NCBI GenBank assembly: GCA_963674705.1
Contig: OY771506.1
Location: forward strand, 1,184,001-1,248,000
Source of the DNA: Phycisphaeraceae bacterium
GTDB taxonomy: Bacteria; Planctomycetota; Phycisphaerae; Phycisphaerales; Phycisphaeraceae
Direction: 5' to 3'
DNA: 64,000 nt
In this document: positions 3,225-63,600 of the stretch, piece after piece
Layout: the number at the start of each line of letters is the position of its first letter
How positions within the stretch are numbered: position 1 is the stretch's first letter
Translations under genes and position numbers: made by a program
The notes under the pieces: model-generated
The model's input: the letters and a program-made list of their open reading frames with translations, nothing else
Databases searched by the model: none
What the model was told of the DNA's origin: nothing

Positions 3225-3257
3225 CCCGAACCCCGAACCCCGAACCCCGAACCCCGA
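3225..3257 (-). repeat. Heptamer array (GTTCGGG)n immediately after epimerase stop
   Basis: Plus strand CCCGAAC x4 + CCCGA abutting CTA at 3258. Confidence 0.95.
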
Positions 3258-4214
3258 CTATAGGTATTGCTTCTGGTACCACGCCCAGAGTTTAGCCAGG
3301 CCATCGGCGACGGGGATTTTCGGCGCGTAGCCCAACAGATTGCGTGCCTTGTCGATGTTGGCGAAGGTGATCTTCGGTTCGCTCGCCGGGGCGGGCGGGG
3401 TTTCGAGGATTGCTTTTTTACCGATGAGGTCTTCGACGATGGTGACGAAGTCTTTCATGAGGACGGGTTCGCCTCGTCCGAGGTTGATGACCTCGTAGCC
3501 GAGCGGTTTATCCATCGCGGCGCTGACACCGGAGACGATGTCTTCGACAAAGGTCCAGTCGCGTTTCATGTCGCCGCCGTCGAAGAGGGTGATTGGTTCA
3601 GCCCGTACGATGCGGTCGGTGATCATGAAGGGCATCATGTCGGGCCTGGCGCGTGGGCCGTAGACGCTGAAGAATCGCAGGGCGGTGAAGTTCATGCCGT
3701 GCAGGTTGTGATAGGTGTAGCCCATCAGCTCGATGGCTTTTTTGCTTGCAGGGTAAGCGGAGAGCGGCAGGTTACAGGCGTCGGTCTCGATGAACGGCAG
3801 GTTCTGGGTTTTGCCGTAGATGCTGCTGGTGCTGGCGAAGGCGAAGACTTGCACATCGTTATGATGCGCCGCTTCGAGGAGGTTGACCGAGCCGGTGATG
3901 TTGACGTCCGTGTAAAGCGGGGCGCGTCCGATGGAGTAGCGGACGTTCGCCATCGCGGCGAGGTGCGCGACGGCGCGCGGCTTATGATCGGCGAAGATAG
4001 CTTTGACCGCTTCGTTATCGCGGATGTCCACTTCCCAGAGCGTGAAGTTTTTGTCGTCGATAAAGTTGGCGACGTTAGCGTGCTTCTGTTCGACGCTGTA
4101 GTAGTCGTTGAAGTTGTCGATGCCGATGACGTGACAGCCCTGCGCGAGTTTGACCTGGCAGAGGTGGGAGCCGATGAGGCCGGCTGCGCCGGTGATTAGT
4201 ACGGTGTTGGACAT
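3258..4214 (-). CDS. NAD-dependent epimerase/dehydratase (UDP-glucuronate 4-epimerase-like)
   Basis: GAAGLIG Rossmann motif, YPASK, RFFSVYGPRARPDM; start at MSNTVLITG. Confidence 0.9.
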   Translation of the reverse strand: MSNTVLITGAAGLIGSHLCQVKLAQGCHVIGIDNFNDYYSVEQKHANVANFIDDKNFTLWEVDIRDNEAVKAIFADHKPRAVAHLAAMANVRYSIGRAPLYTDVNITGSVNLLEAAHHNDVQVFAFASTSSIYGKTQNLPFIETDACNLPLSAYPASKKAIELMGYTYHNLHGMNFTALRFFSVYGPRARPDMMPFMITDRIVRAEPITLFDGGDMKRDWTFVEDIVSGVSAAMDKPLGYEVINLGRGEPVLMKDFVTIVEDLIGKKAILETPPAPASEPKITFANIDKARNLLGYAPKIPVADGLAKLWAWYQKQYL

Positions 4215-4246
4215 ATCGGGTTTCGGGTATCGGGTTTCGGGTATCG
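4215..4246 (-). repeat. Heptamer array (ACCCGAW)n immediately before epimerase ATG
   Basis: mRNA sense CGAT ACCCGAA ACCCGAT ACCCGAA ACCCGAT ATG. Confidence 0.95.
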
Positions 4247-4265
4247 TAAAAACATCTACAAGCAA

Positions 4266-5210: not shown

Positions 5211-5238
5211 AAAGCCGGGGTTAAAGATCGTTTTCTTT

Positions 5239-5287
5239 CGATACCCGATACCCGATACCCGATACCCGATACCCGATACCCAGACCC
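5239..5287 (-). repeat. Heptamer array (GGTATCG)x6 immediately after lpxC-fabZ stop
   Basis: Plus strand CGATACC x6 + CAGACCC abutting CTA at 5288. Confidence 0.95.
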
Positions 5288-11366: not shown

Positions 11367-12473
11367 ATGACCACCACCACTGAGGACAAGGTGATGCCCA
11401 TGGCCTCGGACCAGCTACCGACCGACAAACTGATGGACATGCTCTATCAGATGATGCTCATCCGCCGATTCGAAGAGCGGACGATGCAGGCGTACCAGCA
11501 GGCGAAGATCGGCGGGTTCTGCCACATCTACATCGGCCAGGAGGCCACCGCAGTCGGGGCGATCGCCGCCCTGAAGGATGACGACCCGGTGATCACCGCC
11601 TACCGCGATCACGGCCACGCCCTGGCACGCGGGATGCACCCCAACTACTGCATGGCGGAGATGTACGGCAAGATCACCGGTTGTGCCAAGGGTAAGGGCG
11701 GGTCGATGCATATGTTCGACAAGCCTCACCACATGTACGGCGGCCACGCGATCGTCGGCGGGCAGTGTCCGCTGGGTGTCGGGCTGGCGTTCGCTTCTCA
11801 GTATGAAAAGAAAGACAACGTCACGGTCTGCTTCTTCGGCGACGGTGCGATCAACCAGGGCGCGTTCCACGAAGCGATGAACCTCGCGGCGATCTGGAAC
11901 CTGCCGATCCTCTTTGTGGTTGAGAACAACGGCTACTCGATGGGTACCGCGATCAACCGCGGGACCGCTGCGGCCGACAATCTCGGCGCGAAGGCGGCGG
12001 CGTACGGCATGCGTTACGCCGAGTGCGACGGCATGGACGTGCTGGACACGTACAAAGTCTTCAAACGCGAAGCCGATGCGTCGCGAGGCAGCACGAGCAG
12101 CGCCCTCGGCCTTGAAGATGCCGGCGGAGGCCCCTGCTTCATCAACGCCAAGACCTACCGCTATCAAGGCCACTCCATGAGCGACCCGCAGAAGTACCGC
12201 TCGAAGGATGAGGTCAACGAGCGCAAGGAAAAAGACTGCATCAACACGCTGGTCAACTACCTGGTCGAAAACGATCTGGCGTCACAGGATCAGATCAACG
12301 AACTGGACAAGAAAGCCAAGGTCGCCTCACGCGACGCCATCACCTACGCCGAGCGATCTCCCGACCTGCCGATGTCCGAGATGTACACGGATATCTACGC
12401 CCAACCGTACGGCCCACCGTTCGTGAAGGGCGGACTGCCGAAGATGATCACGGATGGGAATTCGGGGGAGTAG
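11367..12473 (+). CDS. pdhA: Pyruvate dehydrogenase E1 alpha
   Basis: GFCHIYIGQEA, GKGGSMH, GDGAINQG TPP motif, YRYQGHSMSDP. Confidence 0.95.
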   Translation: MTTTTEDKVMPMASDQLPTDKLMDMLYQMMLIRRFEERTMQAYQQAKIGGFCHIYIGQEATAVGAIAALKDDDPVITAYRDHGHALARGMHPNYCMAEMYGKITGCAKGKGGSMHMFDKPHHMYGGHAIVGGQCPLGVGLAFASQYEKKDNVTVCFFGDGAINQGAFHEAMNLAAIWNLPILFVVENNGYSMGTAINRGTAAADNLGAKAAAYGMRYAECDGMDVLDTYKVFKREADASRGSTSSALGLEDAGGGPCFINAKTYRYQGHSMSDPQKYRSKDEVNERKEKDCINTLVNYLVENDLASQDQINELDKKAKVASRDAITYAERSPDLPMSEMYTDIYAQPYGPPFVKGGLPKMITDGNSGE

Positions 12474-12508
12474 ATCGGGTATCGGGGTTCGGGTGTCGGG
12501 TATCGGGA
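12474..12508 (+). repeat. Left heptamer array (NTCGGGN)x5 starting at the base after pdhA TAG
   Basis: ATCGGGT ATCGGGG TTCGGGT GTCGGGT ATCGGGA. Confidence 0.95.
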
Positions 12509-12518
12509 AGATAACCGC

Positions 12519-12893
12519 ATGATGGATAACGATTCATACCGGGGTTTGGAGGTCTGGCAGGTTGCCATGGACCTCGTTGAAGAGGTTTACCGTGTAACAG
12601 CGTTGTTGCCGGAGGCCGAGAAATACGGACTAACTAGCCAATTACGAAGGGCGACTACATCCATACCCGCCAACATCGCAGAGGGTTACGGCCGATCACA
12701 CCGGGGTGATTACTTGCGCCACCTGTCGATCGCACGCGGTTCGCTAATGGAGATAGAGACTCACCTGATGATCGCGGTGAGGCTCAAACAACTGGAACGT
12801 GAGATGGCCATCCCTGCATGGCAACTCACTCAACGCGTCGGCCAGATGCTTACGAAACTCATCCAGGCCTTGAAACAAAGCGAACAGGGTTAA
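12519..12893 (+). CDS. Four helix bundle protein (23S rRNA intervening-sequence protein family)
   Basis: YRGLEVWQ..EKYGLTSQLRRA..SIPANIAEG..IARGSLMEIET signature. Confidence 0.92.
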   Translation: MMDNDSYRGLEVWQVAMDLVEEVYRVTALLPEAEKYGLTSQLRRATTSIPANIAEGYGRSHRGDYLRHLSIARGSLMEIETHLMIAVRLKQLEREMAIPAWQLTQRVGQMLTKLIQALKQSEQG

Positions 12894-12902
12894 CACACCC
12901 TC

Positions 12903-12937
12903 TTCCGATACCCGACACCCGATACCCGAAACCCGAC
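12903..12937 (+). repeat. Right heptamer array (ACCCGAN)x5 ending at the base before pdhB ATG
   Basis: TTCCGAT ACCCGAC ACCCGAT ACCCGAA ACCCGAC ATG; near reverse complement of the left array. Confidence 0.95.
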
Positions 12938-13972
12938 ATGAGAACCATCCAATATAGAGAAGCCCTCCGTGAAGCCATGCAGGAAGAGATGCGGCGTGAT
13001 GACCGTGTGTTCCTGATGGGTGAAGAGGTGGCGCAATACAACGGTGCTTACAAGGTCAGCCAGGGGATGCTCGATGAATTCGGGCCTCGGCGTGTGGTTG
13101 ACTCGCCGATCAGTGAGACCGGATTCTCCGGGCTGGGCATCGGCGCGGCGATGTACGGGCTTCGGCCGATCATCGAGTTTATGAGCTGGTCGTTCTGCCT
13201 CGTCGCGGCCGACCAGATCATCAACAACGCGCCGAAGATGCTATACATGTCAGGTGGACAATTCGGCTGCCCCGCTGTCTTCCGCGGCAACAACGGCGCG
13301 GGCGGTCAGCTTGGGTCGACGCACTCGTGGTGTGTGGAGTCGATGTTCTCCAGTGTGCCGGGGTTGAAGGTGGCGATCCCTTCGACGCCGCGTGATGCCA
13401 AGGGTTTGTTGAAGACGGCTATCCGGGATGAAGACCCTGTGTTCAATCTCGAATCCGAACGCATGCTCGGTTTGGGCGCGCGTGGCGAGAAGGATTTTTC
13501 TCGGTATATCAAGGACAATTGGGCCCCGCCGACGGTTGAAGAGGATGAGGATTTTAAGATCCCGTTCGGTGTCGCGGACATCAAGAAGCCCGGCAAGGAC
13601 GTCACCATCGTCGCCGCCGGCCGGCCGGTGCACTTTGCATTAGAAGCTGCTGAAGAACTTGAGAAGCAAGGCATCGATTGCGAAGTCATTGACCCGCGTA
13701 CGTATCGGCCGCTCGACATCGACACGATTGTACGAAGCGTACGTAAGACGAACTACTGCGTCGTCGTCGATCAGAGTTGGCCATTTGCGAGCGTCGGCGC
13801 GGAGATCGCGGCGCAGGTATATGAAAACGCGCTCGATGATTTGGATAACAAGGTGATCCGCGTCAACAACGACGACATCCCCGCCCCCTACAACCGCACG
13901 ATGGAACAGGAGATGCTCCCGAACGCGAAGAAGATCGTGGAGGCGGTGAAAGCGGTGACGTATAACAACTGA
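12938..13972 (+). CDS. pdhB: Pyruvate dehydrogenase E1 beta
   Basis: MRTIQYREAL, GEEVAQYNGAYK, PISETGF, RPIIEFM. Confidence 0.95.
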   Translation: MRTIQYREALREAMQEEMRRDDRVFLMGEEVAQYNGAYKVSQGMLDEFGPRRVVDSPISETGFSGLGIGAAMYGLRPIIEFMSWSFCLVAADQIINNAPKMLYMSGGQFGCPAVFRGNNGAGGQLGSTHSWCVESMFSSVPGLKVAIPSTPRDAKGLLKTAIRDEDPVFNLESERMLGLGARGEKDFSRYIKDNWAPPTVEEDEDFKIPFGVADIKKPGKDVTIVAAGRPVHFALEAAEELEKQGIDCEVIDPRTYRPLDIDTIVRSVRKTNYCVVVDQSWPFASVGAEIAAQVYENALDDLDNKVIRVNNDDIPAPYNRTMEQEMLPNAKKIVEAVKAVTYNN

Positions 13973-24528: not shown

Positions 24529-24728
24529 GATTTGAGATTAGCGATTTGCGATGCATGATTAAGAGACCCGGCCCTTCGCTTCGCTCAGAACCGGCGTTGG
24601 GAAGACCAAGCCATTAGCCTTTAGCTATTAGCCATTAGCACAAATCCTAAATCATCAATCCGAAATCATAAATACAATTCCCTACACCCTACACCCTACA
24701 CCCTACACCCTACACCCTACACCCTACC
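24529..24728. repeat. Stack of heptamer arrays plus a 30-bp repeated element
   Basis: GATTTGN array 24529-24560; element 24567-24596; GCCATTA array 24610-24639; AAATCNN array 24642-24673; CCCTACA x6 + CCCTACC 24680-24728 abutting ATG. Confidence 0.9.
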
Positions 24729-29442: not shown

Positions 29443-29508
29443 GGCAGGGGTGGTTTTTCTGGGTTCAGGGATTGGGGGATCAGGGGGAAGATGATAGTGC
29501 AGGATGAA

Positions 29509-29621
29509 GCCATTAGCCATTAGCAGTTAGCAGTTAGCCATTAGCAAGAAGGCAAAGAGATACATGCTAAGGGCTCAAAACTGGACCCCTACGCCGGTCC
29601 TGAGCGCAGCGAAGGGCCGGG
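29509..29621. repeat. GCCATTA/GCAGTTA array plus second copy of the 30-bp element
   Basis: Array 29509-29545; reverse complement of 29592-29621 matches 24567-24596 at 28/30. Confidence 0.85.
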
Positions 29622-56211: not shown

Positions 56212-57846
56212 ATGCGCACTGATTGTTTACGAATCCACCGTATTTTTCGGCACACCGTGCTATGCATGGTTTGTCTGCTGTGCATGTCAACACCGCTGCA
56301 TGCCGACGACACACTCACCGATCACCAGCTGGCACGCCACGTCCTGACACGCATGGGATTCGGCCCGGCGCCCGGTGAAGTCGACAAGGTTGTCGAAATC
56401 GGCTGGGAAACCTGGGTCCGCCAGCAACTTGATCCGGATTCGATCGACAACGATGCATGCAATGATTACGTCCGCAAACACTATCCATCGTTAACCATGA
56501 CGATGGACCAGGTGTTCTACGAATATCAGCCCGCATACGAAAACAATCCGCCGACTCAGGACGAGATCAGGAAACGCAATGAGCTGCGCTATAAACTCAA
56601 CCGCGAGTTGACTGCTTCAGTTCTCTATCGTGCGACGCACAGCGAATGCCGCTTTGAAGAAGTCATGGCCGAGTTCTGGCGCAACCACTTCAATATCGAT
56701 CAGAACAAAGATGAGGTGCAATACCTCGCCGCCAACTACGAGCAGACGGTGATCCGCCGACACATGTTCGGCAAGTTCTCCAACATGCTGCTCGCCTCCG
56801 CACGCCACCCGGCGATGCTCATCTACCTCGACAACGATGTCAGCCAGAAACCATTGAGCGAACGCGAACAGAGCCTGATGACACGCTTCGAGAGCAAGCG
56901 TTACCAGCCGCGCATCGTCCAGTCACTCGGCCGACAACGCGGGCTCAACGAAAACTACGCTCGCGAGGTGATGGAACTGCATACGCTCGGCGTCGACAAC
57001 GAAAACCGTAAGGGCGGCTACTCTCAGCACGACGTCACCGAGTTGGCACGCCTACTCACAGGCTGGACGGCCGGGCGGACCGGCGAATCCATGACCATGA
57101 TGAGCGACGGCGCAGGCTACGGCTTCCGCTTCCGCCCGGAAGTCCACGACGACAAACCCAAGAACGTCCTCGGCATGTATTTTGACGGTGACGAGGGCGA
57201 GGCCGGCGGCGTACGCTTCCTCAAAGCACTCGGTGAACACAAACAGACCGCACGCTTCATGTCTTTCAAACTCTGCCGATACCTTATCTGTGACGATCCA
57301 CCTGAAAAACTCGTCGATCACATCGCGCAAGTATTCGAAGAAACCGACGGCGACCTGACACGCGTCTACGAAGCGATCCTCTTCAGTGATGCATTCAAAG
57401 ACCCCGCCAACTACCGCGCCAAGTTCCGCACGCCTTTCGAGTTTGTCATCGCTTCATTGCGTGCAACCGATGCGCAGGTGACGAACTACAACGGCACACG
57501 CGAAGCGCTTCGCCGGATGGGTCAGCCCGTGTATAGCTGCGTCGATCCGACCGGTTACGCCGACACCGCCGAGGCATGGCTCGACCCCGGCGTGTTGATG
57601 TATCGCTGGGACTTCGCCCTGCGACTTGCCGAGGACAGACTCGCCGGCGTGAAACTGCCCAAGACATTCTTCAGTGATTTGAAAGCCGATGACCCCGCCA
57701 TCCTGAAACGCACGCTTGCTGAAAAACTCTTAGGCGGCAGCGACATCAACGGCTGGGATGACCTGGAAAATGCGTTGGGTGATAAACCAGAAGCCAAGAA
57801 TGCCACGGGCCTGGTGCTTGGCTCACCGATGTTTCAGCAGCAGTAG
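56212..57846 (+). CDS. DUF1800 family protein
   Basis: FWRNHFN, PAMLIYLDN, NENYAREVMELHTLG, LGSPMFQ; start uncertain. Confidence 0.9.
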   Translation: MRTDCLRIHRIFRHTVLCMVCLLCMSTPLHADDTLTDHQLARHVLTRMGFGPAPGEVDKVVEIGWETWVRQQLDPDSIDNDACNDYVRKHYPSLTMTMDQVFYEYQPAYENNPPTQDEIRKRNELRYKLNRELTASVLYRATHSECRFEEVMAEFWRNHFNIDQNKDEVQYLAANYEQTVIRRHMFGKFSNMLLASARHPAMLIYLDNDVSQKPLSEREQSLMTRFESKRYQPRIVQSLGRQRGLNENYAREVMELHTLGVDNENRKGGYSQHDVTELARLLTGWTAGRTGESMTMMSDGAGYGFRFRPEVHDDKPKNVLGMYFDGDEGEAGGVRFLKALGEHKQTARFMSFKLCRYLICDDPPEKLVDHIAQVFEETDGDLTRVYEAILFSDAFKDPANYRAKFRTPFEFVIASLRATDAQVTNYNGTREALRRMGQPVYSCVDPTGYADTAEAWLDPGVLMYRWDFALRLAEDRLAGVKLPKTFFSDLKADDPAILKRTLAEKLLGGSDINGWDDLENALGDKPEAKNATGLVLGSPMFQQQ

Positions 57847-57873
57847 AATGAACCGCGAAGGCGCGAAGAAGTG

Positions 57874-57945
57874 AGCCGCAAATGAACGCTAATGCACGCA
57901 AATGTTGAATCCCTTATTCGCGTCCATTAGCGTTCATTCGCGGCT
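57874..57945. repeat. 30-bp inverted repeat with 10-nt internal periodicity
   Basis: AGCCGCAAATGAACGCTAATGCACGCAAAT vs ATTCGCGTCCATTAGCGTTCATTCGCGGCT (27/30 complementary). Confidence 0.85.
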
Positions 57946-60657: not shown

Positions 60658-63600
60658 TCACGCCCCGACGTGCTCTTCCATCGGCGGGCAGGTACAGACC
60701 AGGTGGCGGTCGCCGTACGGATTGTCTACGCGCCCGACGGGCGGCCAATATTTGTATTCGCGCAAGCGGTCAACAGGATACGCACCCAGGCTGCGCGGGT
60801 ACGTGTGTGGCCAATGGTCACCACTCACCGCTTCCGCGGTATGTGGGGCGTGCTTCAGCGGGTTGTCATCCTGATCGAGTTCGCCCGATTCGATCTTGCG
60901 GATTTCATCGCGGATTGAAATCAACGCATCACACAACCGGTCCAACTCCGCTTTCGATTCGCTTTCTGTCGGCTCGATCATCAACGTGCCCGCGACGGGC
61001 CAGCTCATCGTTGGGCTGTGGAAACCGTAATCCATCAGGCGCTTGGCGATGTCTTCGACGCGCACATGCGCCGACTTCTCGAACGGCCGACAGTCGATGA
61101 TAAATTCGTGCGCGACGCGCCCATTCTCGCCGGTATACAAAACGTCGTAATGGCCACGCAGCCGCGCCGCCATGTAGTTCGCGTTAAGGATCGCGCCCTC
61201 GGTCGCCTGCTTCAAACCGTCGCCGCCCATCATCGCGATGTACATCCACGAGATCGGCAAAATCGATGCACTGCCATACATCGCGGCGCTGACGGGCATG
61301 TCACCGGTTAACGGATCGCCCGGCAAGAACGGCGCAAGCGCCTCTGTACATGCGATCGGCCCCATGCCCGGCCCGCCCCCGCCGTGCGGGATGCAGAACG
61401 TCTTGTGCAGGTTCAGGTGACACACATCCGCGCCGATATCACCGGGCCTGCACAGCCCGACCTGCGCGTTCATGTTCGCACCGTCCATGTAAACCATCCC
61501 GCCGTTGTCGTGGATGATCTTGCAGACTTCCTTGATGGTTGTCTCGAACACGCCGTGCGTCGAAGGATACGTGATCATCAGCGCGGCGAGTTTGTCTTTG
61601 TGCTCTTCCGCCTTAGCTCGCAGGTCGTCGACATCGATGTCGCCGTTATCCTTGCAGTTAACTGCCACAACGCGCATCCCCGCGATCACCGCGGATGCCG
61701 GGTTTGTCCCGTGCGCGCTGACGGGAATCAAGCAGATATCGCGTACCGCCTGGTTGTTTGCACCGTCTCCCGATGGCTTGTCTCGCCCATCCGCTATCCG
61801 CGATCCACCATCCGCCATTGCTTTGGCTTCGTGATACCGACGGATCGAAAGCAGCCCCGCGTATTCGCCCTGCGAGCCGGCGTTTGGCTGCAGCGATACC
61901 GCAGCAAAGCCGGTGATCTCCGCAAGCCACATCTCAAGATCAGCGAACAGCTTCGCATAACCCCCCGCCTGATTCTTCGGCGCAAACGGATGCAGGTTCG
62001 CAAACTCCGGCCACGTGATGGGAAGCATCTCGCTCGCCGCGTTCAGCTTCATCGTGCACGAACCCAGCGGGATCATACTGTTCGCCAGGGTGATGTCCTT
62101 TGAAGCAAGGCGCGTCGTGTAACGCAGGAATTCGTGTTCAGCGTGGTATTGGTTGAAGACCGGGTGCGTGAGGATCGGCGAGGTGCGCTTTTGAAATACA
62201 GTCGATCCCGAGTTCGCTTGTTTCACAAGCCCGAGAACATATGCGCGATGCGCATCCGAATCCCAGAATTGTCTTGTGGGAATATCGCCCATGAATCTGG
62301 GTCGTCCGAATTTGTCCAGGGATCGAGCCAGATGTTCTTTTGCTTCTTGACGCGCTTCTTCTACTCCCGGGTCGGGGTGGGTGCCTTTGTTAAAGTAAAG
62401 GATCAGGTCATTGATGACACGAGCGTCGGATAATTCATCAAATGTGATCGCTACACATCGTGGATTGACTTCTCGAACAAGTATCCCCGAAGGCAACGCA
62501 AGCTGGTCCACGACCAGGTTGGCTGTGGTCGGTGATTCGATGTGGATTCTAACTGTGTCGAAAAACTCGCCCGGCTCAACTTTGTACCCAAGCTGTTCCA
62601 TGCCCAGTGCAAATGCGCGGGCATATTGATGCACACGTGTTGCAATCCGCGTCAACCCCTCAGGCCCGTGATACACCGCGTACATCCCCGCAATCACCGC
62701 AAGCAACACCTGTGCGGTGCATATATTCGATGTCGCGCGATCTCGCTTGATGTGTTGTTCACGTGTCTGGATCGCGAGTCGATACGCCGGGTTGCCGTGT
62801 GCATCTTTGGATACGCCGACGATACGCCCGGGCATCTTGCGTGCGTGTTGTTCATGTGTTGCCATGTACGCCGCGTGCGGTCCGCCGAAACCCATCGGGA
62901 CGCCGAACCGCTGCGTGCTGCCGATCGCGATGTCCGCCCCCCACTCGCCCGGCGGCTTGAGCAACACCAGCGACAAAATATCGCACGCCGCCACCAGCAG
63001 CCCCCCCGCCTCATGCACCTTCTCCGCCAACGGGACATAATCCTCAACCCGCCCATCCGTCGTCGGATACTGCACCAACACCCCGCACGCATCGGTAAAG
63101 CCCACGTTTTCAAAACGTGCGTTTTGCACGCGCACTTCTACCCCCATTGTCATCGCGCGCGTCTTCACCACCGCGATCGTCTGCGGATGACAATCATCGG
63201 CCACATAGAAAACAGGCTTCTTGTGTCGCGCGATCGCGTGACACATCGCCATCGCCTCCGCCGCCGCCGTCGCCTCATCCAAGAGCGACGCATTCGCCAA
63301 AGGCAACCCCGTCAGGTCGCTGACCATCGTCTGGAAGTTCAGGAGCGCTTCGAGCCGGCCCTGGCTGATCTCAGGCTGGTACGGCGTGTAGGCCGTGTAC
63401 CAGAGCGGGTTCTCTAAAATGTTCCGCAGGATCGGCGCGGGCGTGATCGTGCCGTGATACCCCATCCCGATCATCGACCGGGCGATCGTGTTCGAACCGG
63501 CGATCGCTTTCAACTGCGCCAACGCCTCATCTTCGCGCATCGGCTCGCCGAGCTTCAGCGGCTCTTTTAAGCGGATATCCTTCGGCACGGTCTGGTCGAT

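Follow-up and report, generated by a model that had tools for sequence, protein, structure and literature searches.

A four-helix-bundle gene framed by inverted heptamer arms between pdhA and pdhB: a likely mobile cassette in Phycisphaeraceae

Results

The pdhA-pdhB cassette

The window is the whole stretch of DNA analyzed, 64,000 nt from the genome of a Phycisphaeraceae bacterium (G000). On its forward strand, a cassette at 12474 to 12937 separates pdhA, which encodes pyruvate dehydrogenase E1 alpha (11367 to 12473; TIGR03182 over cut-off), from pdhB, which encodes E1 beta (12938 to 13972; NF006667 over cut-off, with a start that agrees with relatives). The 5' arm (12474 to 12508) directly follows the pdhA TAG, which ends at 12473, and is made of five G-rich heptamers with an invariant TCGGG core and two variable positions. 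The 3' arm (12903 to 12937) is the inverse of the 5' arm, with five C-rich heptamers, and abuts the pdhB ATG at 12938. The two arms enclose a gene for a four-helix-bundle protein of 124 aa (12519 to 12893). The purine-rich inner end of the 5' arm and the spacer behind it (12505 to 12518) are predicted to be partly paired and hold a weak Shine-Dalgarno (SD)-like word that may serve the cassette gene. The arms are complementary at 30 of 35 positions by Watson-Crick pairing, with one G-T pair (G-U in RNA) and four mismatches, and taking the cassette out leaves TAG-ATG. On all of these points, from the placement of the heptamers to the TAG-ATG remainder, the preliminary description of this DNA was correct. 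No transposase is encoded in the cassette, no rRNA lies at pdhA-pdhB or in 20 other loci scanned, and the only Rfam match in the cassette locus is at chance level. In public DNA contigs of a sister strain, the arms at the pdh junction have 7 and 6 units, and the gene is unchanged.

The predicted fold pairs the arms in register (-194.8 kcal/mol; z, -5.8; 0 of 100 shuffles as stable), with pair probabilities of about 1 for 12475 to 12504. When a terminating ribosome was simulated by blocking 12458 to 12488, the mean unpaired probability predicted for 12923 to 12949 rose from 0.41 to 0.70. By this prediction, a ribosome that terminates on pdhA would make the pdhB start accessible, and coupling by unwinding of the stem is possible. 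Two features that had been taken as signals lost their weight. The variant unit that faces its complement in register is at chance level, since 25% of the 120 unit permutations reach 30 matches. The missing pdhB SD is usual in this genome, where an SD-like word precedes 515 of 1716 called ATG genes, or about 30% (starts from a simple gene caller); no SD-like word was seen in the short cassette-free pdhA-pdhB spacers of the genus.

The cassette protein and its paralogs

The open reading frame at 12519 to 12893 matches TIGR02436 (E = 1.8e-34) and PF05635 over the full model, with scores above the curated cut-offs (118 bits versus 24 and 121 versus 33.8, respectively). Its best solved relative is PDB 2gsc (E = 9e-26), which has five chains, and the cassette protein is by analogy predicted to have five subunits. 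The dN/dS ratio was about 0.07 and 0.11 in the two pairs of relatives with measurable dS, and four further pairs were saturated; these ratios indicate purifying selection on the cassette gene in the pairs measured. The Avd profile scored 19.7 against a cut-off of 80. An association between residues 56 to 58 and 66 and the bases of the unit was left with 2 independent pairs when supported branches were counted (P = 1), a comparison that is inseparable from descent and underpowered.

There are six TIGR02436 genes in G000. Five of them carry inverted 7- or 8-mer arms by eye (the automatic test scored four), and each of the five has its own unit and lies between a stop and a start within an operon. 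An armless paralog (L006; orthologs L107 to L114) occupies the same site throughout the genus; it is possibly a domesticated copy and offers a natural negative control. Four-helix genes that lack paired arms also form a clade (L061, L064, L084, and L088) located near tRNA genes, with three of the four behind a small upstream hairpin.

Arms and heptamer arrays beyond the pdh locus

Inverted 7- to 8-mer arms were found at 55 of 79 GTDB loci of close relatives (from the best 80 of 538 confirmed) and at 40 of 77 loci in the relatives' genomes (the best 77 of 81 matches). Among control small genes drawn from a set of 883, 4 of 450 were armed; two of these belong to the TIGR02436/PF05635 family, and one is a PF13366 gene. 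Most 5' arms begin no farther than about 10 nt from the upstream stop, which is often included in the first unit. The family-wide survey for codon-anchored inverted arrays that had been suggested earlier supports such anchoring as a trait of the family. Arms around genes mostly have 4 or 5 units, and the cassettes read in the host-operon sense wherever an upstream gene was found. The pdh cassette is one copy of a general, widespread design.

The TCGGG repeat family also occurs away from cassette genes. We found 62 strict arrays in G000 versus 0 in each of five block shuffles, and the strict pattern at periods 6, 8, 9, and 10 gave 0 to 4 arrays; the family is therefore beyond chance. A relaxed pattern gave 76 arrays versus 18 in the reversed genome, a control that we replaced by the block shuffles on the strict pattern. 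Of the 55 intergenic arrays found with the relaxed pattern, 28 come to 16 nt or less from a called stop (11) or start (17) with their outer end. The inner end is this close to a called stop or start in only 3, two of these at the pdh cassette gene. Arms join a REP-like repeat at 23 of the 76 arrays. Gene-less hairpins or solo arms also lie in frame within 13 G000 genes, which we take from their motifs to be tilS, mnmA, parA, dnaE, carB, rsmA, dnaG, a fabF-like gene, pgl, mutS, priA, tgt, and lipB. In G000, five units make up 17 of 21 in-gene arms and 30 of 53 non-REP arms.

The array search placed three solo arms on the reverse strand of the window: a G-rich arm of the TCGGG family at a stop codon (3225 to 3259), an arm that is C-rich on the sense strand and ends at a start codon (4214 to 4248), and a G-rich arm 9 nt past a stop codon (5237 to 5278). 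We considered 5244 to 5278 together with 4214 to 4241 as a cassette with swapped cargo and rejected this candidate; these are two independent solo arms that flank an ordinary operon gene. Elsewhere in the window, a mosaic in which heptamer arms of three different families are stacked with a REP-like repeat precedes a start codon (24560 to 24728), a gene-less hairpin of the GxxExxY arm type is intergenic (57845 to 57945), and five-unit arrays of other heptamer families lie at 29508 to 29545 and, apparently within a coding region, at 61787 to 61818.

Variation within the arms

Across 93 armed loci, the arm mismatches comprise 108 G-U and 111 A-C, whereas 78 tRNA acceptor stems, used as a control, have 32 G-U and 3 A-C. 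Interior units gave 1040 matches versus 1039.7 in shuffled order, so they show no in-register covariation. With the end units included, arm order beats the shuffles (2268 versus 2214 matches; 0 of 2000). The same unit positions vary in both arms (11.3 versus 3.0 to 5.0 when rotated), and the TCGGG core is retained. Arm variation thus looks strand symmetric and constrained by the core rather than by pairing. Given the mismatch, order, and position data, two inverted sets of sequence-specific sites fit better than a selected RNA helix. A role of the stem alongside such sites is possible.

The pdh junction in relatives

We matched pdhB in 34 of 41 genomes; 30 loci were returned, and pdhA was present in 26 of them, G000 included. 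Within the genus, G004 has an identical cassette at this junction, and the gene of G009 is 66% identical and has arms of a different unit. The junction is filled by a gene-less hairpin of 129 bp in G001, by a solo 3' arm in G003 and G008, and by spacers of 36 to 40 nt in G002, G005, G006, and G007. The gene is thus at the junction in 3 of the 10 genus genomes read. G014, from another genus, has a broken copy, and three further Phycisphaeraceae loci (L173, L174, and L181) have the gene. Altogether the cassette gene is at the pdh junction in seven genomes of the family, with changing arm units. Given this occupancy and the varied alleles of the genus, the site is old in the family and its content turns over. 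The preliminary description had named vertical conservation of the gene at this site as a finding that would refute it; the occupancy in seven genomes, with changing arm units, bears out that objection in part.

The empty sites that had been expected in relatives were not found: none of 25 relative junctions has a stop-ATG fusion, and three outgroup loci have a 4-nt pdhA/pdhB overlap. From their sequence, the "empty" pdh alleles look like decay products. As for target-site duplication against a pre-insertion allele, the empty alleles resemble decayed arms, and one possible duplicated overlap was seen, at L058. No joint of 12473 to 12938 occurred in four DNA-type contig runs, where the joints listed belong to other arrays.

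Movement and swapping of cassettes

The cassettes of L173, at pdhA-pdhB, and L058, at a glutamate-synthase junction of the family member G019, have the same unit and align over 429 nt, from one outer arm to the other, with 84% identity. Their flanks gave no alignment, and the two are sisters in a quick tree. Between G000 and G004, 5.7% of the 327 kb aligned (from 400 kb of G004) is different, yet the two do not have the same content at six junctions (flhB, moxR, kdsD, argB, fabH, and pre-carB). The gene names flhB/flhA, fabH/fabD, lepA, moxR, kdsD/kdsC, argB/argF, gltB/gltD, and dnaE2 are our assumption from motifs. Across these slots, a four-helix cassette in one genome stands against a GxxExxY-motif cassette, a gene-less hairpin of another family, or a different four-helix cassette in the other. 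At swapped junctions, the two genomes diverge from the last codons or the stop onward and agree again near the next start. The in-gene carB slot has a 60-nt difference between the two genomes. Both the unit shared by L173 and L058 and the swaps favor the mobile cassette that the preliminary description had put forward.

Not all of the history is movement. Within the genus, protein clades often follow the site in the tree; together with the occupancy of the pdh junction in seven family genomes, this means that much of the cassette history is vertical. We also considered a recent sweep of the pdh cassette between G000 and G004 and rejected it. Its 688-nt identical run is unexceptional, since it ranks fifth and 16 runs reach 500 nt in the 327 kb.

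Several further observations were made at these slots. The genes of L142, L145, and L161 (G004 and G009; flhB-flhA and moxR), in slots that hold four-helix cassettes in G000, have the GxxExxY motif and their own inverted 9- to 10-mer arms. At the six swapped junctions, the first 60 to 180 nt past the downstream anchor are nearly mismatch-free, and G000 and G004 use synonymous codons for the last ten residues at kdsD; both may be traces of an exchange process. In L055, L056, and L079 (G010, G001, and G004), the downstream kdsC-like gene lacks an ATG, GTG, or TTG past the 3' arm and is in frame with the cassette gene behind a TGA, and in G009 (L083) there is a normal overlapping GTG. Readthrough, a frameshift, or an unusual start is possible. 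Near 2284765 of G000:C1, a helicase-like gene has an insertion of about 1 kb without a counterpart in G004 (L256, about 3682), which resembles an intein.

Cassettes nested in coding genes

In 17 cases (15 of 79 and 2 of 77 loci), a full cassette lies inside a coding gene, and the host +2 frame is open in all of them, in a set that was itself found by its open frame: of the 15, 11 have a frame open for 300 nt on either side, and four were added by inspection. Among the 68 loci that the automatic test did not flag, 12 have an open +2 frame, including the 4 nested by inspection; among 38 armed intergenic relatives, 1 does. In 12 of 15 nested cases, the host frame matches restriction-methylase, CarB, or CobN families. 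Two nested cassettes lie in dnaE2, at the loop where the dnaE of G000 bears a gene-less hairpin. These two (L057 of G030 and L059 of G013, at about locus position 1400 to 1900) come from two families, and the polymerase frame is open throughout. The exceptions to an intact frame were the tgt gene of G007, which is frameshifted after its hairpin (1 of 11), and, among the loci listed, L175, with a stop inside a second gene-less hairpin. The open frames suggest that the cassette likely stays in the mRNA and is not cut out. Because the same unit is found at other junctions, swapped for others, or nested in frame, the pdh unit is likely a mobile cassette.

Discussion

Origin and function of the cassette

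We put at roughly 55% the probability that the pdh locus holds a selfish cassette bounded by its arms, with a ring protein that reads the arm cores, with tolerance that comes from position and frame rather than from excision, and with movement by host recombination. On this model, 12474 to 12937 would be a likely selfish mobile unit, exchanged between relatives across gene junctions, and its predicted five-subunit protein would likely read the conserved cores of its own 4- to 5-unit arms. Gene-less hairpins, solo arms, and short spacers are found at sites where relatives carry the full unit and may be its decay products. At stop/start junctions, the unit would be tolerated because it falls between genes and has its own start signal; a unit within a gene would be tolerated because its +2 frame leaves the host reading frame open. 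As no transposase is encoded, we propose that the unit moves by host recombination, either at sequence resembling the arms or via the conserved flanking genes. This step, and a bound protein ring that might guide or protect the recombination, are the least secure. The cassette itself we regard as quite probable, and the recognition and movement steps as tentative, somewhat short of an even chance. Several observations speak against the model. Arm length is not fixed, since arms of 4 and of 5 units are equally common around genes and the sister strain has 7 and 6 units at the pdh junction. Much of the history is vertical, and neither a pre-insertion allele nor a target duplication was pinned down. 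The stem is predicted to be very stable, arm order beats the shuffles once end units are counted, the tgt gene of G007 and the second hairpin of L175 break the frame rule, and the residue-to-base association is inseparable from descent.

One alternative is a nonautonomous element moved in trans, in which an enzyme encoded elsewhere, either a Y1/RAYT-type transposase or a reverse transcriptase recruited by the Avd-like protein, would recognize the arms and insert the unit. There are 14 matches to Y1_Tnp and a single reverse transcriptase in the genome, REP-like repeats are joined to arms at almost a third of the arrays, the cassettes keep the host-operon sense wherever an upstream gene was found, and PF05635 is reported to be homologous to Avd in the available text of PMC10053308. 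Yet neither enzyme adjoins the pdh cassette, the sole reverse transcriptase match is about 750 kb away, the Avd model falls far short (19.7 versus 80), a single enzyme would need to tolerate widely differing arm units, and the orientation is explicable by selection; we consider this reading unlikely. Alternatively, the arms could pair as RNA: RNase III would cut the resulting stem, or the stem would loop out the cassette, and the pdhA stop and the pdhB start would act as adjacent. The attraction of this reading lies in the very stable predicted stem, paired in register with probabilities near 1, in the predicted opening of the pdhB start region when a ribosome blocks 12458 to 12488, in the RNase III gene of the genome, in the 4-nt overlap at the three outgroup loci, and in the Coxiella intervening sequence, which has heptamers and is cut by RNase III according to the available text of PMC4990558. 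Against this, the mismatches have no G-U bias and the interior units no covariation, and cleavage without ligation would break the nested dnaE, carB, and methylase genes. An open +2 frame would be needless if splicing were efficient, solo arms and 36- to 51-nt spacers suffice at the pdh junction in six genus genomes, and no fused empty site was found among the 25 relative junctions. We judge it improbable. The preliminary description had offered looping out or processing as the reason why insertion is harmless; the lack of a fused junction, the nested open frames, and the lack of a pairing constraint all weigh against that reason.

A host-beneficial regulator, finally, would be an old, mostly vertical, autoregulated module that tunes downstream genes, with its slots reshuffled by strain recombination only. 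The same site is used in seven family genomes, clades are linked to sites, the gene appears to be under purifying selection, and a polarity of heptamers near stops and starts is published (PMC4692102, in its available text). These observations favor such a module, but the gene is at the pdh junction in only 3 of 10 genus genomes and broken in G014, unrelated cargo replaces the cassette at other slots, and the neighbor genes share no function, which makes this the least probable of the readings considered.

The selfish, arm-bounded cassette links a very large protein family without known function, the 7-base repeats that abound near bacterial stops and starts, and the question of how ORF-bearing intervening sequences of rRNA arose, and it opens the function of the family to direct testing. 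The pdh cassette itself is one of very many copies. The five armed G000 paralogs, with five different units, are a built-in panel of cognate and noncognate arms for binding. A wider and rather doubtful extension is that such units form a large, undescribed class of selfish cassettes that have no transposase; each would encode a ring of five subunits that reads five cores per side through a coevolving code of protein and repeat. From this class would derive the bacterial heptamer repeats, long without explanation, as well as the low-complexity loops that lie in frame in core enzymes and the rRNA intervening sequences that carry ORFs; its rivals for operon junctions would be cassettes that encode nucleases. 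A ring protein whose repeat code can be tuned, or an insertion unit that essential genes tolerate, would be of practical use.

Comparison with known systems

In a literature search outside most subscription journals and supplements, we found no link between TIGR02436/PF05635 and inverted heptamer arms outside rRNA. Within the literature searched, the design appears to be undescribed outside 23S rRNA; the Geobacter supplements list repeat-adjacent genes and could bear on this. REP/RAYT elements (REPINs), MITEs, and Rickettsia palindromic elements are small palindromic multicopy elements that are intergenic or in frame within genes. The cassettes differ from them in that the arms are tandem 7- to 8-mers, differ by cassette clade, and enclose a gene that is not a transposase.

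The Avd protein of diversity-generating retroelements (DGRs) compares with the cassette protein in that PF05635 (2GSC) is reported to be homologous to it (PMC10053308, available text) and the cassette protein has a weak HMM match. Unlike in a DGR, the profile match is far below cut-off, and no reverse transcriptase, template, or variable repeat lies beside the cassette. Dispersed heptamers in Xanthomonas and Nostoc (PMC4692102) and in Geobacter metallireducens (PMC2700814) are linked, in the available parts of these papers, to G-quadruplexes or putative regulator sites. Like the arms here, they come in 4 to 5 units and often in inverted pairs, are rich in G behind stops and in C ahead of starts, and also occur within genes. 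In the same parts they are not tied to a cassette gene, whereas the heptamers here are the arms of a cassette.

The nearest system is the S23p intervening sequence of Coxiella burnetii 23S rRNA, which has heptamers and is cut by RNase III; its ORF is reported as decaying, and a Leptospira intervening sequence is cited along with it (PMC4990558, available text). Unlike it, the pdh cassette sits in an mRNA operon between pdhA and pdhB, its excision is disfavored by the nested in-frame copies, and its gene appears to be under purifying selection in the pairs measured. The likenesses are a PF05635 gene within terminal inverted repeats, tandem heptamers before the start, and a length of about 430 to 460 nt. 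The kinship claimed in the preliminary description holds: the pdh cassette is akin to the ORF-bearing intervening sequence, of which it is a variant.
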